Position numbers and translations under genes: made by a program. Shown here one piece after another: positions 2,031 through 15,575 of a DNA stretch of 29,555 nucleotides. The notes under the pieces were generated by a model that was not told the DNA's origin, ran no database searches, and saw nothing but the letters and a program-made list of their open reading frames with translations. Origin of the DNA: Nanopusillaceae archaeon (lineage in GTDB: Archaea; Nanobdellota; Nanobdellia; Nanobdellales; Nanobdellaceae). How positions within the stretch are numbered: the first letter of the stretch is position 1; each line of letters starts with the position of its first letter. The stretch spans positions 1-29,555 of the forward strand of contig JAVYNJ010000004.1 in the NCBI GenBank assembly GCA_038735675.1, given 5' to 3'.

Positions 2031-2957
2031 CTAAATTTTTTCTTCTGTGTTAGATAGAATTACAAATGGTTCTGGATTTACATATTTTCTAAACCATCCA
2101 ACAAAAATTATAGAAGGAACATAATCTCTTAATGTACAAGATCCATCAAATGGCCATGTCCTTGCGCTGTCTGAATAATATGTGCACATTGTGTTAGAAA
2201 TATTTACAAGTTTTCTATACATTCCTCCTCCAGAAACCCATGAATTTGTATCCCTAGATAAATCCAATAAAAGATTTAAAGAGTGATTTGTCCAAATTAT
2301 TTGTGGATTTAAACTTAAATTAACAATTGTTCCAGCTGTTGGTCTCCCCAAATTAATAGGTCCAAAAACTAAAATCCATCCAGTAGTTGTAAAGGTGTTT
2401 GTAAGTTGAGTTCTATTAGTTAATTGATATCTTACTCTATAGTTATCTAAATCTCTTCCTGGTTGTTGATATACGCGAATTCTTAACATAGTTATGTTTA
2501 CAGGAACTAGATCACCAAAATCAGAAGGTCTAATTAATATTTCATTTCTTGCATCATGATAGTATGTGTTGAAAGTATCTTCTGGATTAGATGATCTAAA
2601 GCCCCACGTTGTATTAGGAACGTTTGGAAATATTTCTCATTCAGTCCAAATAAATACTTTAGAAATATCACTTAAACTTGTAGCATCAGGATTTCCATAA
2701 TATAAGTAAATTGTTTTATTTGAAAATGCGGTTAAATTAACTCTCACCCAAATTCTTGTATTATCGGTATTGCATCCACTTTCTATCCAATAGTTTAATA
2801 AAGTTAATCCATCTGAATCCGTAAATCTTATATCACCACAATCCGATCTCATTTTTCCTTGAGAAATCAAAGTTTGTGTATCCAATATAATTAAAACTTG
2901 ATAATCTATCAAATTTTGAACAGATCTTTCTAAAATATATATTGGAGTTCTAAAATT
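2031..2957 (-). pseudogene. DUF2341 (concanavalin/LamG-like lectin fold) protein, interrupted by one in-frame TGA and lacking an ATG start
   Basis: The sequence FRTPIYI...LIDYQVLIILDTQTLISQGKMRSDCGDIRFTDSDGLTLLNYWIE...IWVRV...IYLYYGN is the DUF2341 signature. ORFs 2637-2912 and 2031-2489 are in the same frame. The 147 nt between them (2490-2636) are open. The only interruption is TGA at 2637-2639. Confidence 0.55.
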
Positions 2958-2969
2958 CTATGGTTCTAA

Positions 2970-3416
2970 CTATGGTCTTTCTAATACTTCAGAAAAAAAT
3001 ATTGCTTTTTCAAATTTTTTTCCATTACAACTTATAATCTCAATTTTATTCCAACCATTTTTAATATTATCTAGTCTTATTCTTGCAATTTCAGATGGAT
3101 TTAATAAATTGTCTTTTAGAATTTCTTCTATTTCGTATGAAAAATTTATTAAATTACCATTTACATAAACTTTAAAACAACTTAAATCTAAAGAAAGTTT
3201 TCCAATATTTTTTATTTTTATTTCTGGTAAACTTATTTTATCATCTAAAATTTCAATTATTTCAAATGTAGATTTTTCATATTTTTGTATGTTTTTTAAA
3301 ATGATATTTGCCAGATTGTTTATATTGTAATTTAAGTAAAATAAAAAAATAGAAATTGCTATTAAAAAGAATAAAAAACTAAAAGCAGTTCCAATAATAA
3401 TTGAATTTGTTTTCAT
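2970..3416 (-). CDS. FlaF/FlaG-like protein (N-terminal TM helix plus beta-sandwich-like domain)
   Basis: It has an N-terminal hydrophobic helix (IIIGTAFSFLFFLIAISIFLFYL). The motif IKIKNIGKLSLDLSCFKVYVNGNLI resembles the V.N.G...L......V.G block of archaellum FlaF/FlaG proteins. Its start overlaps the upstream gene by 4 nt. Confidence 0.45.
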   Translation of the reverse strand: MKTNSIIIGTAFSFLFFLIAISIFLFYLNYNINNLANIILKNIQKYEKSTFEIIEILDDKISLPEIKIKNIGKLSLDLSCFKVYVNGNLINFSYEIEEILKDNLLNPSEIARIRLDNIKNGWNKIEIISCNGKKFEKAIFFSEVLERP

Positions 3417-3871
3417 GTTAAGCTACAAGTATTATTATAGATATAAACTATTTTTTCATCATAAGACCCAACATTTGAAACTACTTTTACAGAATATATT
3501 CCATCAGATAAATTAAAAACAGATATTTTTAATGTTTCATGTTTATGCCATGCAGAATCATTAAAAATCTTATATGCAAAAGATATGGATATTTCGCTAT
3601 ATCTACCATTAATAAAAAATTTTGTTAAGTTCGGATTTAGGATAGTGTTTCCTCTATTTGTTACATAAAATGATACAACTCCATTTTCATAAGAACAAGA
3701 ATCAATGTCAATTACAGATTGTAATCTATCAGAAATTATTTTTTCTCTACTTATTATTGCTCCCTGTATTTCTGCTATATTTTTGAACAATCCAGAAGCA
3801 AGTAAATATACGGCAACTATAGTAACTATGAAAAGTAAGACATATGATATTACAGTTGCAATTCCTTTCAT
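3413..3871 (-). CDS. FlaG/FlaF-like protein with a class III (prepilin-like) signal peptide
   Basis: MKG|IATVISYVLLFIVTIVAV resembles archaeal KG|(V/I)(S/A)(P/T)VIATVLL prepilin-type N-termini. SFYVTNRGNTILNPNLTKFFINGRY matches the FlaF/FlaG-type beta-domain motif. Confidence 0.5.
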   Translation of the reverse strand: MKGIATVISYVLLFIVTIVAVYLLASGLFKNIAEIQGAIISREKIISDRLQSVIDIDSCSYENGVVSFYVTNRGNTILNPNLTKFFINGRYSEISISFAYKIFNDSAWHKHETLKISVFNLSDGIYSVKVVSNVGSYDEKIVYIYNNTCSLT

Positions 3872-4696: not shown

Positions 4697-4712
4697 AAAT
4701 TTTATATATATT
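4697..4712 (+). promoter_or_regulatory. Putative TATA box for the ATPase operon (a short or absent leader is implied)
   Basis: The sequence tttatatata at 4701-4710 lies about 26-35 nt upstream of the ATG at 4736, inside the 56-nt divergent spacer. Specificity is low in such AT-rich DNA. Confidence 0.3.
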
Positions 4713-4735: not shown

Positions 4736-6046
4736 ATGGATATTATAATAGGAAGAACTCAGGATGAAATTGAAAAATATGGTAAAGAAGGGACAATTTT
4801 TATCGGAAAAGAATATATAAAGATGGAAAATGCTCTTTCTCTTGCAAATGAAGTTTATTTAGATGTCAATTTTCCACATATAATTTTAATTGTTGGAAAG
4901 AGAGGGCAAGGAAAATCTTATACATTATCTTCAATTATAGAAGGAATATCTCTGTTAGACTATTCATATAGAAAAAATATAGTCAATTTAGTTTTTGATA
5001 CAATGGGAATATTTTGGACAATGAAATTTCCGAACTATAGGGAAGCAGAATTATTAGAAAGATGGAATATGAAACCAAAAGCATTAGATAATGCAAAAAT
5101 ATATGTACCTGAAGGAATTTATGAAAAATACGAAGATTTAAAAATCCCTGTTGATGATACCTTTACTATTAATCCGCATGATTTATCAGAAATCGATTGG
5201 ACATTGGTTTTTAATTTAAATCCAATATCATTGAAAGCAGCATATTTGCAAAGAATAATTAGAGAGCTTAAAAGAAGAAATGAGGATTATTCTATAGAAA
5301 ATATAATCAATTATATTGAGAAAAAAAGTTTAGATCCAAAAATAAAAGAAATTTTGATAAATTATTTTGAAAATGCAAATTCCTGGGGATTGTTCTCGGA
5401 AAAAGCTACACAATTGAAGAAAATTTTAACTCCTGGAGATGTAATAATATTAGATATTTCTTTATATACTACAATACTGGGTGGATGGTCTGTTAAAAAT
5501 TTAGTAATTGGATTAATCTCTAAAAAAATATTTTATGAAAGATTACTTTGGAGAAAAAAAGAAGAATTAGAAGAAGCATACTTGGGATTTGAAATTAGAG
5601 ATAGAGAAATGCCTCTCATTTGGATATATATAGATGAAGCACATGAAGCCATTCCAAAAGATAGTATTACTCCTGCTACAGAACCATTGTTACAGATAAT
5701 AAGAGAGGGCAGACAACCAGGAATATCGTTAGTTTTGGCAACGCAACAACCAGGAAAATTATTAATTGATGCAATTTCTCAGTCTGATATAGTTATATCC
5801 CATAGAGTTACTGCAAAAAGCGATATAGATGCTCTTAATGAAGTTATGAAAAATTTTACAGCTCAGGATATTGAAATATATATGAATGAAAATCTTCCAA
5901 AAAGAAAAGGGGCAGCAATAGTATTAGATGATAAATCAGAAAGAATATATCCAGTTCAAATAAAACCAAGATTTTCTTGGCATGGAGGTCAAGATGCTCA
6001 GTTAATTAGAAAAAGAATATGGTTAGAGGAATATTCAAAAAAATAG
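4736..6046 (+). CDS. HerA/FtsK-superfamily P-loop ATPase (DUF87-type)
   Basis: Walker A is HIILIVGKRGQGKSYT. Walker B is LIWIYIDEAHEAIP. The block GISLVLATQQPGKLLIDAISQSDIVISHRV is typical of HerA/VirB4/FtsK-class ATPases. No PilB/FlaI-type motifs are present. Confidence 0.7.
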   Translation: MDIIIGRTQDEIEKYGKEGTIFIGKEYIKMENALSLANEVYLDVNFPHIILIVGKRGQGKSYTLSSIIEGISLLDYSYRKNIVNLVFDTMGIFWTMKFPNYREAELLERWNMKPKALDNAKIYVPEGIYEKYEDLKIPVDDTFTINPHDLSEIDWTLVFNLNPISLKAAYLQRIIRELKRRNEDYSIENIINYIEKKSLDPKIKEILINYFENANSWGLFSEKATQLKKILTPGDVIILDISLYTTILGGWSVKNLVIGLISKKIFYERLLWRKKEELEEAYLGFEIRDREMPLIWIYIDEAHEAIPKDSITPATEPLLQIIREGRQPGISLVLATQQPGKLLIDAISQSDIVISHRVTAKSDIDALNEVMKNFTAQDIEIYMNENLPKRKGAAIVLDDKSERIYPVQIKPRFSWHGGQDAQLIRKRIWLEEYSKK

Positions 6047-7614
6047 AAGGAATAATATCTCTAGTTGTATTTATTTTATTTTTGATTTTTTATTTTAACG
6101 TTTATGATATTACGATATTTAATGATTCTAATAATGAAATTTACAGAAAAATACAAACCATAGAAGAAATTTATAATAAGCTAAAAAAAGAAGGATATAT
6201 TGTTAGTTTTAGAGTTTATATATCAAAATATTCTAAAGAAATTTTGTGTAATTTAAATAACGAAGAATTAAGAAAAGAACTTTGTTACAATCATCCTTTT
6301 TTTATTCCAATAAATCTTAGTTTTTTATTAAAAAATGATGGAATATTAAGTAATACAAATAATACTCTTTTTAAAAAAGACCTTGGAGGATTTGTATATC
6401 TAAATTTATCTTCTTTTGAATGTGAAGAAGAAGAGTATATTTTAATTGAAGTAAAAGGTCCAATAAATTCTCCAAAAATTGTATTTGTTACAACTCCAAC
6501 TATTTACTATTGGTTAAATAGTGGTTTTAATGTAACAGTAGAATCTAATGTAGAGGCAGAATTTAGTTATTGTTATTTATCGGAAAATGGAACATGTTTA
6601 GAATCTAATACTGGAAAATCTTATGGTATAATAATAAAAATAGATTATCTTACATCAGAAAAAGCAATTTTTAATGTTTCAAAAGGTATTAATGGAAATG
6701 CAGAAGCCTTTAATATTCAAAATTTAGATTATTTTCAATATAAAATAATTTTTGAGCCAAAATGTTATTTAGATATGGAATTTTTAGTATCTGAAAATAT
6801 ATATTATGATTTTCAAGACTATATGAATTTAAAGTGTTCAAATTATTTTATGAGTAATTCTAAAATATATTATGACTTTCAAAACAAGATTTTAATAGAG
6901 GTATATTACAAGTTATCTCTTTATAGAGAAGCTCTTCTATCCAATCCAAATATAAAAAATGTTGGAATAGCATGTATACAATACTATAAGGAATTTAACA
7001 ATAGTATATTTAATGTTTATAGAGTTTTATTTTCAAATAGTTCCTGGTTTTTTGAAATAGCAGAATATAATATTTCTAATTTAAATCAGCAGTTTAATTT
7101 ATTCAACTGGTCTTTTAGATTTTCTAGTTTTATTCCAGATGAGTACTTTAATTTTACAAACTTTGAAAACTTCAAAAATAAAAACATATTCACAAATAAA
7201 ATAATGCTTCGAAAATTGAGTAATTCTTATTGTAAATACGTTTTATTGTTTTTTGATGATATTTACAACACTACTTTTTACGGAAATAAAACAGCAAATG
7301 TAATCATATTAAGTGATCAAAATTTCTTAAGACCGAGAATACATTATTTTTGTATTAATCAAACAATGGACAATCTAGCTATTGATGTATATTACGGTTA
7401 TTCTATGCCCATGTACGAGCTAAAATACATTAATAAAGTATATTATATAGATATAAAAGATTTAGAAGAAGACGATAAAACATCTTTTTATTTGAAAAAT
7501 TTAAATATTTCTGTTGGAAATAAAGTAAATAAACCATACTCTAAAGGATATAATGTTTATATTAAATATAACAATAAGCTAATAGAGGATTATTTAATAA
7601 TTTACATAAAATGA
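6019..7614 (+). CDS. Large membrane-anchored or secreted Asn/Tyr/Phe-rich protein of unknown function
   Basis: The N-terminus MVRGIFKKIEG-IISLVVFILFLIFYF is a single hydrophobic helix. There are more than 12 N-x-S/T sequons and several Cys. An internal repeat (N/K)IYYDFQ(D/N) occurs twice, about 23 aa apart. It overlaps the ATPase gene by 28 nt. Confidence 0.5.
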   Translation: MVRGIFKKIEGIISLVVFILFLIFYFNVYDITIFNDSNNEIYRKIQTIEEIYNKLKKEGYIVSFRVYISKYSKEILCNLNNEELRKELCYNHPFFIPINLSFLLKNDGILSNTNNTLFKKDLGGFVYLNLSSFECEEEEYILIEVKGPINSPKIVFVTTPTIYYWLNSGFNVTVESNVEAEFSYCYLSENGTCLESNTGKSYGIIIKIDYLTSEKAIFNVSKGINGNAEAFNIQNLDYFQYKIIFEPKCYLDMEFLVSENIYYDFQDYMNLKCSNYFMSNSKIYYDFQNKILIEVYYKLSLYREALLSNPNIKNVGIACIQYYKEFNNSIFNVYRVLFSNSSWFFEIAEYNISNLNQQFNLFNWSFRFSSFIPDEYFNFTNFENFKNKNIFTNKIMLRKLSNSYCKYVLLFFDDIYNTTFYGNKTANVIILSDQNFLRPRIHYFCINQTMDNLAIDVYYGYSMPMYELKYINKVYYIDIKDLEEDDKTSFYLKNLNISVGNKVNKPYSKGYNVYIKYNNKLIEDYLIIYIK

Positions 7615-7940
7615 GAGGATGGATTGTTTTATTTGAAACAATAGTTTCTATAATTATATTAACTACAGCATATTTGGTTTTTATTAATTATGTTAGAAAT
7701 AGAGAGAATATAGAAAATATTGGTTTTAAATTGAATATTGAAAATTTTAGAAATTTCGTTGAAGATTGTTATCCAGAAAAGATTTATGTAATATATAATA
7801 TTTCTTCAGGTACATATATAGTATGTTTAAAAGGAAATTTAGGAGATTTGGAAGATACTAAGAACTATACATTCTATGGAAAGTATTTATTTTCTGGTTA
7901 TAAACAGTACGATCCATTTATTTTAATTTTATACAAATGA
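7611..7940 (+). CDS. Small pilin-like protein (class III signal-like N-terminus)
   Basis: MRG|WIVLFETIVSIIILTTAYLVF has a basic residue then Gly, followed by a hydrophobic helix with Glu at +6. ATGA overlaps occur at both ends. Confidence 0.45.
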   Translation: MRGWIVLFETIVSIIILTTAYLVFINYVRNRENIENIGFKLNIENFRNFVEDCYPEKIYVIYNISSGTYIVCLKGNLGDLEDTKNYTFYGKYLFSGYKQYDPFILILYK

Positions 7941-8383
7941 AGTCACAATATATTCTTATATCAGCAATAATTATAGTTTCGATACTATCATATTATATTT
8001 TGAGTGTTTTAAAAACAAATATTGATATAAAAAGCAACCTCTTTGAATATGTGAAAAATTTTGAAAATGAAATTTTTTATATTTCTAAAAATTTTGATAA
8101 ATCTAAAATTTTAGATTTTGTTCAGGTTTATAGAGATTACTTAATTTCTAATCAATTAGAAATGAAATATATTTGTATTGTTTCAGAAAAATTTTATGAT
8201 AATTCAATAAATGAATGTTCCAATCAAGAGGAAAACTGCTGTTATGTAATAAGAACACCTACATATTTTGAAAATTTAAAATATTGTAACGTCTCTTTTT
8301 TATTTAAGGAAATGAATATGATTTGCATATGTTATAACATTTCTAAAGAAAATAATTTTTATATAAACTTAATATGTGTTTAG
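7937..8383 (+). CDS. Small membrane-anchored Cys-rich protein, possibly pilin-like
   Basis: MKS|QYILISAIIIVSILSYYILSV is a short charged N-terminus followed by a hydrophobic helix. The C-terminal domain carries 9 Cys. It is coupled to the upstream gene by an ATGA overlap. Confidence 0.4.
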   Translation: MKSQYILISAIIIVSILSYYILSVLKTNIDIKSNLFEYVKNFENEIFYISKNFDKSKILDFVQVYRDYLISNQLEMKYICIVSEKFYDNSINECSNQEENCCYVIRTPTYFENLKYCNVSFLFKEMNMICICYNISKENNFYINLICV

Positions 8384-8853
8384 CAATTTTCTATAAAAAT
8401 TTGATTAAAAATTATGTTTGTTTTTATACATAGCTCTCTAGTAAAATTTAATTCTTGGTTATTTAAAATAATATAATTATAAGTGTTTTTTGAAATATTA
8501 TAATAAAATAAAGAACCTCTTTTTTCTATACTTATGTTTATATGAGCAGATTCTGTATTATATTGAGTTCTTGAAGTGTAAGTAGCATATATTATATTTG
8601 AATCATTTAAGAAAATAATTTTAGAGCCTAAAGGTAGTTGTTTTTTAAAAGTAAAGCTACATATCCCGCAATTTCTATAAATGCTTAAAATTGCATGATA
8701 TTCGTTAAGTAAACTAATTATATTTTCAATCTCCAATTTTGTTTTTTCTCTTTCAGTTACGTAATAACTATAATAAAGCACATATGAAAGAGCGAGGAGA
8801 GAAAAAGAAACATATATTAAAAATTCTATAAAAAGACTTATGCTTTTTTTCAT
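8380..8853 (-). CDS. Small pilin-like protein (class III signal-like N-terminus)
   Basis: MKKS|ISLFIEFLIYVSFSLLALSYVL resembles prepilin leaders of the KKGFTLIELLIV type, with Glu at +6. Its stop codon overlaps the stop of the convergent gene (TTAG at 8380-8383). Confidence 0.45.
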   Translation of the reverse strand: MKKSISLFIEFLIYVSFSLLALSYVLYYSYYVTEREKTKLEIENIISLLNEYHAILSIYRNCGICSFTFKKQLPLGSKIIFLNDSNIIYATYTSRTQYNTESAHINISIEKRGSLFYYNISKNTYNYIILNNQELNFTRELCIKTNIIFNQIFIENC

Positions 8854-11718: not shown

Positions 11719-13455
11719 TTACTTATGCATAAATATAAATTTGTCTTTTTCTTTTTTCAAGAAGCCATATCTTATGGCATGTATAATTTCTCCATCATTT
11801 ACAAATTTTAAATTAGATTCTCCAATAGCATTGATAATACCTGAAGGTTCTAAAATTTTAATATTTATAGAATCCTCTTCTGAAACCCACTGAACTATTT
11901 TTGCATTTATTTTCTTTGCATCCTCCAAACTATCACTTATATATTTGCATATTGCCTTATCTTCTTCTATTTTTTCTACTTCAATATTAAAAGCATCCAT
12001 TAATCGTAAGTATTTGTTATTTAATACGTCTGACTTTTCTAAATAGAAAATATTGCTTTTTATTATGATTTTTCTTTCACCTAAATCTTCTTTTGGATGA
12101 TTTTTAAGTATAACTTCTTTTGGAATTTTTATATTTCTAATAATAACTTTTATAGGATTTCTTATTATAAAAAATCTTTTTGAAAAACTATCAATTATCT
12201 CTCTGTTATAAGAATGTATTCTTTCCCAATCAATATAAGAATCTACTAAAGAAATTCCAATTTCCAAAACATATTTTTTTATTGCTTTAGGTTGTATTCC
12301 TCTTCTTCTTAAAGCCATTAAAGTTGCTAAAAATGGATAATCCCAACCATCAATTTTGCCTTCATTTATTAATTTCCTTATTTCTGATTTATGCAAAGGA
12401 ACGTCTTTTACTAAAAAAGCGCCATAATTTATAATTTTTGGCATTTTCCATCCAAAATAGTCAAATATATATTTTTGTTTATATGTATTTACTTCATGTT
12501 CCTTCATTCTAAATACGTGAGTAATCTCCATAAGATGGTCGTCAATAGATACGGAAAAATTATATGTTGGCCAAACCCAAAATTTTTTTGCATAATTTTC
12601 GCCATATTTATATAATAACCAAGGATGGGGATTTTTTTCAGGATTTATTACTCTAAATGCAATCCAATCTCTTATTGATGGATTTGGATGATTAATATCT
12701 GTTTTTATTCTTAAAACAGCTTGACCCTCATCATATTCTCCGTCTAACATTTTTTTAAATTGCTCTAAATTCCAATCAATATCTTTACTTCTATGTTCGC
12801 AGGCAATTCCTTTTTTTCTATTATCTTTTATTTTTTCGCTATTACATAAATCTACATAGGCGTATCCCAATTCAATTAATTTTTTTGCATAAGTATAATA
12901 TATATTCAATCTTTCTGATTGTATATATATTTCATCAATTTTATCTTCAATTAACCATTCTACATCATGAATTATTTTTTCATATGCTTCAATCAAAGGT
13001 TTTTTGACTTTTGGATCTGTATCTTCAAGTCTTAAAATAAACTTTCCATTATACTTTTTAGCAAAATAATAACTTAAAACTATGGCTTTTGCATGTCCTA
13101 TATGTAAATATCCTGAAGGATTTGGAGCAAATCGGGTTTTAACCTTTCCATATTCTGCCTCTTCTAAATAATCGATTTTATCTTTTTTTTCTTCCTTTTT
13201 TGCTGCTAAAATTTCTGGGAATTCATTTTCTAAAATTATCTTAGCCTTTTCTTTATCAATTATATTAATTTTTTCAACAATTTCCTTAATCTTTGGTATA
13301 TATTTTTTGATATCTTTTTTAATTTCTGGAATTTCTGCAACTACTTTAGATACAACAGAATTTAAGTCTATTTTATCATATTTTACTTTACAAAATAATG
13401 CCCATTTTTTTGCTATATCTTCAAAATTCATTTTTAAAATATTTTTATTGCCCAA
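11719..13455 (-). CDS. gltX: Glutamate--tRNA ligase (archaeal type)
   Basis: RFAPNPSGYLHIGHAKA (HIGH motif) and the overall layout match archaeal GluRS. The true start may be the second Met (13431), which would remove the 22-nt overlap with spt4. Confidence 0.85.
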   Translation of the reverse strand: MGNKNILKMNFEDIAKKWALFCKVKYDKIDLNSVVSKVVAEIPEIKKDIKKYIPKIKEIVEKINIIDKEKAKIILENEFPEILAAKKEEKKDKIDYLEEAEYGKVKTRFAPNPSGYLHIGHAKAIVLSYYFAKKYNGKFILRLEDTDPKVKKPLIEAYEKIIHDVEWLIEDKIDEIYIQSERLNIYYTYAKKLIELGYAYVDLCNSEKIKDNRKKGIACEHRSKDIDWNLEQFKKMLDGEYDEGQAVLRIKTDINHPNPSIRDWIAFRVINPEKNPHPWLLYKYGENYAKKFWVWPTYNFSVSIDDHLMEITHVFRMKEHEVNTYKQKYIFDYFGWKMPKIINYGAFLVKDVPLHKSEIRKLINEGKIDGWDYPFLATLMALRRRGIQPKAIKKYVLEIGISLVDSYIDWERIHSYNREIIDSFSKRFFIIRNPIKVIIRNIKIPKEVILKNHPKEDLGERKIIIKSNIFYLEKSDVLNNKYLRLMDAFNIEVEKIEEDKAICKYISDSLEDAKKINAKIVQWVSEEDSINIKILEPSGIINAIGESNLKFVNDGEIIHAIRYGFLKKEKDKFIFMHK

Positions 13456-14222: not shown

Positions 14223-15575
14223 ATGAGTTTAAAAAGAAAGATAAAGGAATTTTATGCTTCAAATTCTGAAGTAATCGAAGATATAGTAATCGTATCTAAA
14301 AATAGGGAAGTTGCATATCTACTAGAAAATAATAAATTCGGTCAAAGACCATCTATAATAGAAAATAAAGGAGATATATTTTCTTATATAGATAAAGGAG
14401 CAATATCTTTTCATATATCTTTAGAAAGATGGTCGGATCCAATGTTGTTAGAAAATGTAAAGTCTAGGAAAGAATTGGAAGAAATAAGAATAGGTTGGGA
14501 TCTAATTATCGATATTGATTCAAAATCTGTAGATATAGGAAAAATCGTTACAAGAAATATTATTAACTTTTTAGAAAATAAAGGAATAAAAAAAATATAT
14601 CTAAAATATTCGGGTGGAAAAGGATTTCATATTGCTATTCCTTGGGAAATTTTTCCAAAAAGAATTGATTATTTAAAAAAAGGAGAAATTGTTGAAGAAG
14701 ATACAGTAAAACTTTTTCCAGATATTGCTAGAATTATTGCTATGTATTTGGTTGAAAAAATAAAAGAAAAAGTAGAAGACGAAATATTAAAAAAATTTCC
14801 AGAGATTGAAAAGGAAAAAAACGAAAAGGAATTGTTTTTTTCCGTTGTAGAAATAGATACTATTGCTATTTCTAATAGACACTTAATAAGATGCTTATAT
14901 TCTATAAATGAAAAAACTGGAAGATTATCTATTCCAGTTGATATTAAAAATTTAGAGAATTTTAATCCAGAATACGCCACTCTTGATAATTTTATATATG
15001 AAGGAATCCCATTTTTAACAGAGGAAATCAAAGAAAGAGAAGAAGCAGAAAAACTATTTAGAGATGCAATAAATTGGAAAATAAATAAAGATTTGTTTTC
15101 AATAGAATATATAGTAAAAACGGTAAATAAAATAGAAACTAAAAAAATAGAAAAGGAGCTTATTAAAGAAAAAAGAAAGCATAGAGAAAAAATTACTGAA
15201 GATTATTTTCCTCCATGTATAAAAAATATTTTATCTGGAATAGATGATGGTAGAAAGAGATCAGTATTTATATTAATAAATTTTTTGTATCATATAGGAT
15301 GGTCATATGAAGAAATAGAGAAAAAAATTAAAGAATGGAATAATAATCTTAATGATCCTTTGAGAGAAAGATATGTAGAATATCAGTTAGAATGGCATAA
15401 GAAAATATATAATTCTAAAAAATATTATTTACCTCCAAATTGTAATAATGATATGTATTACAAAGAAATCGGTGTTTGTCAACCAGATAATATTTGCAAA
15501 TATATTAAGAACCCCTTACTTTATCCATATAAAAAATTAAAGTTAAGTAAAGATAAAACTATAAATTCTTCTTAG
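14223..15575 (+). CDS. priS: DNA primase: PriS catalytic domain fused to a PriL C-terminal-domain-like (4-Cys) region
   Basis: Catalytic motifs are WDLIIDIDSK (DxD), YSGGKGFHIAIPWE (SGxxGxH) and RCLYSINEKTGRLSIP. The C-terminal part contains PPCIKNIL...GRKRSVFILINFL plus three further Cys (PPNC, GVC, NIC). Confidence 0.7.
   Translation: MSLKRKIKEFYASNSEVIEDIVIVSKNREVAYLLENNKFGQRPSIIENKGDIFSYIDKGAISFHISLERWSDPMLLENVKSRKELEEIRIGWDLIIDIDSKSVDIGKIVTRNIINFLENKGIKKIYLKYSGGKGFHIAIPWEIFPKRIDYLKKGEIVEEDTVKLFPDIARIIAMYLVEKIKEKVEDEILKKFPEIEKEKNEKELFFSVVEIDTIAISNRHLIRCLYSINEKTGRLSIPVDIKNLENFNPEYATLDNFIYEGIPFLTEEIKEREEAEKLFRDAINWKINKDLFSIEYIVKTVNKIETKKIEKELIKEKRKHREKITEDYFPPCIKNILSGIDDGRKRSVFILINFLYHIGWSYEEIEKKIKEWNNNLNDPLRERYVEYQLEWHKKIYNSKKYYLPPNCNNDMYYKEIGVCQPDNICKYIKNPLLYPYKKLKLSKDKTINSS

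Follow-up and report, generated by a model that had tools for sequence, protein, structure and literature searches.

The five genes considered here lie in a 29,555-nucleotide stretch (the 29.5-kb window, G+C about 25%) of contig JAVYNJ010000004.1, from the Nanopusillaceae archaeon assembly GCA_038735675.1. A gene encoding a HerA-like ATPase is followed on the same strand by one large gene and two small ones, s1 and s2, on which a third small gene, s3, converges; we refer to the four genes after the ATPase as the cassette (Table 1). The coding regions of the ATPase and the large gene share 28 nt (6019-6046, from the coordinates), ATGA junctions are read in the sequence at 7611-7614 and 7937-7940, and s2 and s3 meet in a TTAG at 8380-8383. 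On re-reading, the five open reading frames (ORFs), coordinates, overlaps and motifs quoted in a preliminary description of this DNA were all exact. The five genes are real: their order and overlaps are kept in Nanobdella aerobiophila, YN1, NZ13-N and other Nanopusillaceae. An ATPase of identical sequence has been deposited from a Nanopusillaceae metagenome-assembled genome (P0001). Between the ATPase and large gene the overlap is 16-19 nt in Nanopusillus and Nanobdella and 4 nt in two further loci, L089 and L011. Codons 1-9 of the large protein in the window (MVRGIFKKI) coincide with the stretch that encodes the disordered C-terminal tail of the ATPase; dual coding at 6019-6046 may partly account for the strong conservation of this leader.

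Table 1. Features of the ATPase-cassette locus and its surroundings in the window
Feature	Position	Strand	Product or remark
HerA-like ATPase gene	4736-6046	+	436 aa
Large cassette gene	6019-7614	+	531 aa
Small cassette gene s1	7611-7940	+	109 aa
Small cassette gene s2	7937-8383	+	148 aa
Convergent small cassette gene s3	8380-8853	-	157 aa
TATA-like AT-rich element TTTATATATA	4701..4710		In 56-bp divergent spacer; read from the sequence
ArlF/ArlG-like gene	3413..3871	-	152 aa, N-terminus MKG↓IATV...; NCBIfam ArlF 4e-10, ArlG 3e-9
Second member of the ArlF/ArlG-like pair	2970..3416	-	148 aa; weak NCBIfam ArlF match, E 0.061
DUF2341 ORF	2637-2912	-	91 aa; Pfam 1.3e-20; TTG start, N-terminal helix absent

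The spacer between the ATPase gene and the divergent gene for NMN adenylyltransferase (- strand) contains a TATA-like element, TTTATATATA, whose centre is about 31 nt upstream of the ATPase ATG. Judging from its sequence and position, this element is a putative archaeal promoter that would give rise to a leaderless transcript, and the ATPase and the downstream genes are probably cotranscribed from it. A scan for sigma-70 promoters and terminators, a model unsuited to archaea, gave no more sites than shuffled sequences, and besides TTTATATATA no promoter or terminator could be called in the AT-rich archaeal DNA of the locus.

Each ATPase with 65% identity or more to that of the window is followed by a homolog of the large gene, with overlapping stop and start codons. 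Such loci were found in the window, NZ13-N, N. aerobiophila MJ1 (AP019769), YN1 (AP031373), three more Nanopusillaceae and the more distant genomes L089 and L011, and the downstream genes are thus conserved and co-localized with the ATPase in nine genomes of the clade, as the preliminary description required of its proposals. The order in the Nanopusillaceae is fixed: large gene, s1, s2, convergent s3 (present in all of their loci) and the gene for ribosomal protein S19e. Homologs of the cassette proteins are confined to this close clade, with 28 matches for the large protein (531-755 aa), about ten members for s1 and four for s3. Between genera the cassette proteins are approximately 30-35% identical, against 66-78% for the ATPase, a pattern typical of surface proteins.

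All four cassette products begin with one to three basic residues followed by about 20 hydrophobic ones, as the preliminary description had read them. Moreover, three of the four share a more specific signature, in which [KR]-x is followed by five residues, a glutamate (+6) and then about 20 hydrophobic residues. The glutamate had been noticed before in the 109-aa and 157-aa proteins, where we find it too, and it is also present in the 531-aa protein. With the arrow marking the putative cleavage site, the N-termini read MVRG↓IFKKIE in the large protein of the window and MVRG↓I.K.(I/V)E in its orthologs, M(R/K)(G/S/N)↓W....E across s1 homologs and M(K/R)x↓(I/V/L)SL(F/W)(I/V)EFLIY in s3; s2 starts with MK(S/T/N)↓QYIL and a hydrophobic stretch, and the glutamate is absent. 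In one s1 homolog (P0162) the leader is longer (MSKRG↓WLTYLE) and the position of the glutamate is kept. In the s1 homolog of L089 (9621-9899) the basic leader is missing altogether, and the protein starts with MLQVLE, its glutamate at residue 6 counted from the methionine; there is no upstream in-frame start, as if this protein were made in a "mature" form. Used as a regular expression, the motif matches nothing else in the clade loci and none of 122 N-terminally anchored ORFs elsewhere. It is present in three of the four cassette proteins in most clade genomes, and in loci L008 and L087 the strict pattern is found in s1 and s3 only. The common motif shows that the large protein, s1 and s3 belong together.

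The cassette proteins are rich in sequons and cysteines. The large protein contains 16 N-x-S/T sequons, as compared with 6.7±2.2 in shuffled sequences (z = 4.2), and several of them are at invariant positions. Sequon density is 1.4-3.0 per 100 aa in the cassette proteins and 0-1.0 in nine cytosolic controls from the window. Each cassette protein has 2-10 cysteines, many of them invariant: ten in the large protein, eight in s2 (six invariant among seven orthologs) and four invariant ones in s3. The impression of a sequon-rich 531-aa protein and a cysteine-rich 148-aa protein, given in the preliminary description, is therefore upheld by these counts, and because of the enrichment in both sequons and cysteines the cassette proteins are predicted to be extracytoplasmic glycoproteins. 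The large protein is beta-rich after its N-terminal helix and is a candidate adhesin-bearing pilin-like subunit. Its AlphaFold model (25-sequence alignment) shows a long helix, residues 2-56, and beta strands, all at low confidence (predicted local distance difference test, pLDDT, 43.8). Profile-profile comparison among the large protein, s1, s2 and s3 revealed no paralogy beyond the N-terminal helix, and none of them had a match in PHROGs or PADLOC. A DUF2341-like segment noticed by eye in the large protein (IWV.LN...) was rejected, since an hhalign comparison with the DUF2341 ORF of the window reached only E 0.29 and 25 homologs were without any Pfam match.

A connection of the cassette to canonical filament machinery is seen in L089. 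The order in this locus is HtpX, ATPase, genes for proteins of 541, 92 and 130 aa, two convergent T2SSF genes and a T2SSE gene; the T2SSE product matches NCBIfam FlaI (1.5e-121), and the T2SSF genes, which match ArlJ/FlaJ and amount to a split platform, occupy the place of s3. It matches the layout published for the type IV filament "subsystem 4A" of some Nanoarchaeota, in which a pair of platform genes is joined by genes for an ATPase, a pilin and an adhesin (bioRxiv 10.64898/2026.04.22.720090). L089 is a single case, yet a telling one. Downstream of its ATPase and large gene, L011 has genes for NTPase_1, a ferredoxin and two ArlF/ArlG-like proteins (12499-13380). The latter are homologous to the ArlF/ArlG-like pair of the window (2970-3871), the 148-aa product matching the one encoded at 12940-13380 with E 1e-12. 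The 152-aa member of the window pair also matches Pfam Arch_flagellin (E 5.9e-5) and is possibly linked to the cassette. The pair lies near the cassette in two different arrangements, those of the window and L011, and not in Nanobdella, YN1 or NZ13-N. In addition, MJ1 encodes ArlB/H/I/J and carries archaellum-like filaments of 7-10 nm (bioRxiv 10.1101/2023.10.27.564410), while YN1 encodes FlaBDEHIJF and its archaellum-like filaments have been shown (PMC11420986). Since both strains encode archaellum machinery, a conventional motor for pilin-like proteins exists in these cells.

Taken together, these data lead us to the reading that we prefer, and to which we give about an even chance: the four genes would be a cassette of minor subunits and an adhesin for a filament built by FlaI/FlaJ, cotranscribed with an unrelated HerA-like translocase. 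Each product would enter the membrane through its short basic N-terminus and single hydrophobic helix, exposing an N-glycosylated, disulfide-bonded domain outside the cell. Joined to one another by their N-terminal helices, the proteins would then serve as minor subunits in a type IV filament, which could be an archaellum or else an adhesive pilus; the 531-aa protein would be the subunit that bears the adhesin. The builder would be a canonical FlaI/ArlI-type ATPase with a FlaJ-type platform, encoded elsewhere in the genome, and the HerA-like ATPase would be a housekeeping ring translocase that moves nucleic acid at the expense of ATP and has no relation to its neighbours. Leader cleavage, incorporation into a filament, the adhesin role and the substrate of the ATPase are all inferred.

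Several observations weigh against this reading. The pilin-like N-termini put forward in the preliminary description are upheld in their basic leader and helix and, in three proteins, in their glutamate. The residue at -1 of the putative cleavage site varies (G, S, N, D or C), which is atypical of prepilin peptidase substrates. Searches of the cassette proteins against Pfam and NCBIfam found no pilin or archaellin model (including PF04021 and Arch_flagellin) and no match of any kind for the large protein, profile searches of the PDB for the large protein, s1, s2 and s3, each run from an alignment of orthologs, gave chance-level matches, and Foldseek comparison of the large-protein model with the PDB returned nothing below E 0.4. 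Two nanoarchaeal genomes have also been reported to lack a recognizable prepilin peptidase (PMC4858521). The adjacency of cassette and T2SSE/T2SSF is limited to one lineage, that of L089, and among 35 metagenomic FlaI-like T2SSE loci, collected with the L089 FlaI as query, neither the cassette nor the HerA-like gene occurred in any. The main counter-argument is another one: the ATPase and large genes are adjacent and overlapping in all nine clade genomes with a long enough contig, and this adjacency survives rearrangement of both flanks, which is a classical signature of functional coupling.

Some of the same observations would suit surface glycoproteins that keep their N-terminal anchor and are not filament subunits. 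Such proteins might belong to the S-layer, to the cone of the attachment organelle or to a host-recognition complex, with the ATPase again unrelated, and in the last case the conserved glutamate would hold the complex together in the membrane. Besides its cone and portal, the attachment organelle of Nanobdellales has a barrier or gate and a 7-8 nm tube, and no genes have been assigned to these parts (PMC11104419, PMC11420986, bioRxiv 10.64898/2026.06.04.730037), leaving room for proteins of this kind. The variable -1 residue, unlike that of prepilin peptidase sites, the lack of homology to pilin families and the prepilin peptidase reported missing in two nanoarchaea are all in accordance with uncleaved anchors. 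However, neither a longer leader (MSKRG↓W...) nor a missing one (MLQVLE) alters the distance to the glutamate, a constancy that fits a defined mature N-terminus. Moreover, the L089 cassette abuts T2SSE/T2SSF genes, and the large protein has a predicted N-terminal helix of 55 residues, albeit at low confidence. We regard permanent anchoring as rather unlikely.

The assignment of the ATPase bears on the remaining explanations. Its translation contains a Walker A motif (GKRGQGKS), a Walker B motif (IYIDEAHE) and the block LATQQPGKL...ISHRV, and it matches Pfam DUF87, the HerA central domain, with E 2.7e-13 (51 bits, cutoff 23.2). In a Foldseek search with its AlphaFold model (28-sequence alignment; pLDDT 88.4, predicted template modelling score 0.89), the top 50 PDB entries were all HerA-type proteins or TdpA (E 3e-19 to 1e-12), the best being the Thermococcus kodakarensis HerA of HerA-NurA (3e-19), with Sulfolobus solfataricus HerA also among them; matches by sequence in the PDB were likewise anti-phage and repair HerA proteins. 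No transmembrane segment was predicted. It is thus a compact, soluble member of the HerA clade of the FtsK-HerA superfamily, and its placement by the preliminary description in the HerA/FtsK class rather than with PilB/FlaI agrees with the DUF87 score and the Foldseek list, which points to HerA and not to FtsK, VirB4 or PilT. By analogy with solved HerA hexamers, which are the ground for this view, it most likely forms a ring that translocates nucleic acid with ATP.

One could suppose that this protein is simply the HerA of double-strand-break repair, its partners NurA, Mre11 and Rad50 being encoded elsewhere. The best structural matches are indeed the Thermococcus and Sulfolobus repair proteins, and the annotation of the Nanobdella genome names the ortholog HerA (P0022). 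However, the segment ahead of Walker A is short, about 45 residues that form three strands and one helix, so that in the model the HAS barrel is incomplete and reduced to a small beta domain. The NCBIfam equivalogs for repair and anti-phage HerA align to the C-terminal half only and score far below their cutoffs (NF040819, 26.7 bits against 970; NF040937, 22.4 against 800), and with an incomplete HAS barrel and such scores the protein is not a canonical repair HerA. In addition, a motif search found no Mre11- or Rad50-like ORF within ±10 kb of the ATPase in about 87 loci, and no NurA or effector partner was seen beside it in these loci, NurA having been checked via neighbour clusters only. PADLOC and PHROGs gave generic superfamily matches (terminase, FtsK, HerA, mad8), those of PADLOC to HerA/mad8 being remote. 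Beside the ATPase of the window there is no anti-phage effector such as Sir2 or DUF4297, and its four neighbours have no PADLOC match. A repair function of the classical kind is, in our opinion, unlikely. Literature searches for DUF87 and for NurA/HerA, each combined with DPANN, returned nothing relevant.

The ATPase is far more widespread than the cassette. We found more than 4,358 homologs, and a pattern scan with one genome per species placed the family in at least 594 species genomes labelled Nanoarchaeota, Woesearchaeota or similar. Orthologs elsewhere are 45-58% identical and of the same length, those of other orders being 45-51% identical over the full length; in the family alignment (A1) mean column identity is 61% and a C-terminal P..WHGG is invariant. 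In order to survey its neighbourhood, ORFs were called in 83 non-redundant ATPase loci and the neighbours were clustered. In the approximately 75 loci outside the close clade there was no conserved operon partner. The recurrent neighbours were housekeeping genes, above all HtpX (31 of the 83 loci) and DnaG primase (29 loci, in 12 of which it is immediately upstream), and others seen frequently were a KH protein, RIO kinase, FEN1, topoisomerase VI and a Trm5-like methyltransferase; next to the ortholog that is 58% identical comes, downstream, a MiaB-like radical-SAM gene. There is no enrichment of N-terminally anchored neighbours around the ATPase, as ORFs with a single N-terminal helix make up 17 of 282 (6.0%) within two genes of it and 71 of 990 (7.2%) farther away. 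On the co-occurrence with pilin-like genes proposed for checking in the preliminary description, the loci outside the clade gave no excess of anchored neighbours and no cassette.

In the ATPases that do accompany the cassette, 79 of the 82 positions with at least 97% conservation elsewhere are unchanged, and the three changes are all conservative (S to T, Q to K/R and Y to F); at the level of sequence, then, these copies give no sign of a new function. The ATPase of the window is an ordinary ortholog of a near-ubiquitous Nanoarchaeota family, whose role would be general and independent of its neighbours. Because it occurs phylum-wide without the cassette, its function cannot depend on the four downstream genes.

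Two loci deserve mention beside these. In L005 (3697-8004; Nanoarchaeia, ATPase 51% identical), the gene upstream of the ATPase encodes a 1,435-aa protein that overlaps the ATPase start by 4 nt and has faint immunoglobulin/cadherin-like matches and hydrophobic segments at its termini; it is the only other case we have seen of a large surface protein coupled to the ATPase. In L023 (11479-12861; Pacearchaeales-like), a gene for a 460-aa protein with a T2SSE-like P-loop and KH domains is convergent to the HerA-like gene; it is of the PINA/MJ1533-like type and is not a pilus ATPase.

VirB4 and inovirus pI/Zot are ATPases of the FtsK-HerA superfamily that assemble filaments of small membrane proteins. 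With this precedent in the same superfamily, the five genes might encode one apparatus, in which the HerA-type ATPase drives assembly or transport; in Nanobdellales it could correspond to the attachment organelle's gate, filament or tube, or else to a Ced/VirB4-like transfer machine. Such an apparatus would explain why the ATPase and large genes remain overlapping neighbours in all nine clade genomes although their flanks have been rearranged, and MJ1 and YN1, which carry the cassette, do build an attachment organelle whose filament measures 7-8 nm and whose gate is cytoplasmic. On the other hand, the ATPase family is phylum-wide, the cassette is absent elsewhere and the clade copies have no specific change. 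The ATPase has no membrane segment and the locus offers no polytopic membrane partner. Models of proteins with comparable roles match it marginally (Pfam TrwB_AAD_bind, E 0.092; FtsK_SpoIIIE, E 0.038) or, in the case of the VirB4 and TraG models of Pfam and NCBIfam, give nothing beyond E about 0.1. Finally, a canonical FlaI/FlaJ pair is available, and in L089 it is adjacent. A HerA-type motor for pilin-like proteins, as suggested in the preliminary description, was thus not borne out by a family that is phylum-wide and partnerless, with unchanged clade copies and FlaI/FlaJ abutting in L089; its alternative of a Ced/Ted- or conjugation-like machine fared no better, with no VirB4/TraG match of note and neighbours that have a single N-terminal helix. 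We consider a common apparatus quite unlikely. Least probable of all, and in our view improbable, is that all five products belong to the Nanobdellales attachment organelle itself, with a pilin-like filament or tube going through the cone's portal into the host and a HerA hexamer as the cytoplasmic "gate", either building the filament or pumping macromolecules along it, an idea that rests on the restriction of the cassette to the MJ1/YN1 clade and on the maintained ATPase-large gene adjacency and that, if true, would represent a filament or transfer machine with a HerA-class rather than a PilB-class motor.

As for the rest of the window, the preliminary description had located a FlaF/FlaG-like pair and a DUF2341 gene across the tRNAs from the ATPase unit, and the NCBIfam and Pfam matches of Table 1 confirm it; the tRNAs that separate them are tRNA-Ala and tRNA-Gly. 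The DUF2341 ORF stops abruptly and is followed by a separate 152-aa ORF (2031-2489, - strand) rich in R, T, G and P. The stretch 2031-2912 has the highest G+C of the window (0.30) and may be a fragmented or recently acquired gene of the DUF2341/lectin type. Farther away, a single 450-aa protein (14223-15575) has both small-subunit (residues 98-241) and large-subunit (286-409) DNA primase domains, being a fused PriS-PriL. Among the window proteins that were scanned, none had a T2SSE, T2SSF, A24 peptidase, NurA, Mre11 or Rad50 domain, in line with the earlier remark that a platform protein, a prepilin peptidase and NurA/Mre11/Rad50 are missing from the window; the remaining ORFs, outside the domain scan, were identified only by synteny with loci L001 and L003.

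Cultured symbionts of the Nanobdellales, namely N. aerobiophila MJ1, YN1 and YN4, are available, and they display several structures without assigned genes: archaella of an unusual kind, thorned and with a corrugated proximal segment, a second appendage of 15 nm and the attachment organelle. A glycosylated, pilin-like cassette that is restricted to one lineage, is united by one signature and occurs in cultured strains is a testable candidate for such a structure. We see in it a lineage-specific variant of a system type already known. The compact HerA-like ATPase, in turn, is among the better-conserved uncharacterized proteins of the Nanoarchaeota. As it is phylum-wide and stands alone, the question shifts from which filament it drives to which nucleic-acid transaction these reduced genomes need it for.

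Among known systems, the HerA proteins of HerA-NurA, Sir2-HerA and DUF4297-HerA share with this ATPase the RecA-like core and the helical insertion (Foldseek 1e-19 to 1e-13), but it is approximately 100-150 residues shorter, has a 45-residue N-terminal beta domain and has no adjacent nuclease or effector. VirB4, CedB and inovirus pI (Zot) belong to the same superfamily and, to our knowledge, are the only precedent for a filament or transfer mechanism driven by it; in comparison, our locus has no CedA-like polytopic protein, and the ATPase lacks a membrane anchor and matches these proteins marginally or not at all. The closest parallel to the cassette is found in the archaeal type IV filaments ("subsystem 4A / system 1" and the Methanococcus Epd pilus with DUF361), which likewise combine small proteins having a basic leader, helix and glutamate with a large adhesin-like member, a PilY-like adhesin in the case of "subsystem 4A / system 1". 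The Methanococcus DUF361 proteins have a Q-x-S-x-E motif and are cleaved by EppA (PMC2910488), and the cassette motif resembles both this one and the Gly↓Phe-x3-Glu (G↓FxxxE) of bacterial pilins. In contrast to the archaeal filaments, the glutamate of the cassette occupies +6 instead of +5, residues other than G or A occur at -1, there is no pilin or archaellin match, the window has no secretion ATPase, platform or peptidase, and a HerA-like gene heads the transcription unit. In terms of organization, the preferred reading, minor subunits plus an adhesin, also recalls bacterial tip complexes. In GspH-I-J-K and in FimU-PilV-W-X with PilY1, four pilin-like proteins are encoded together. The bacterial complexes belong to another domain of life and have no detectable homology with the cassette, the likeness being functional only; within it, as in these complexes, one member of the cassette is much larger than the others, and s2, like GspK, does without the conserved glutamate.

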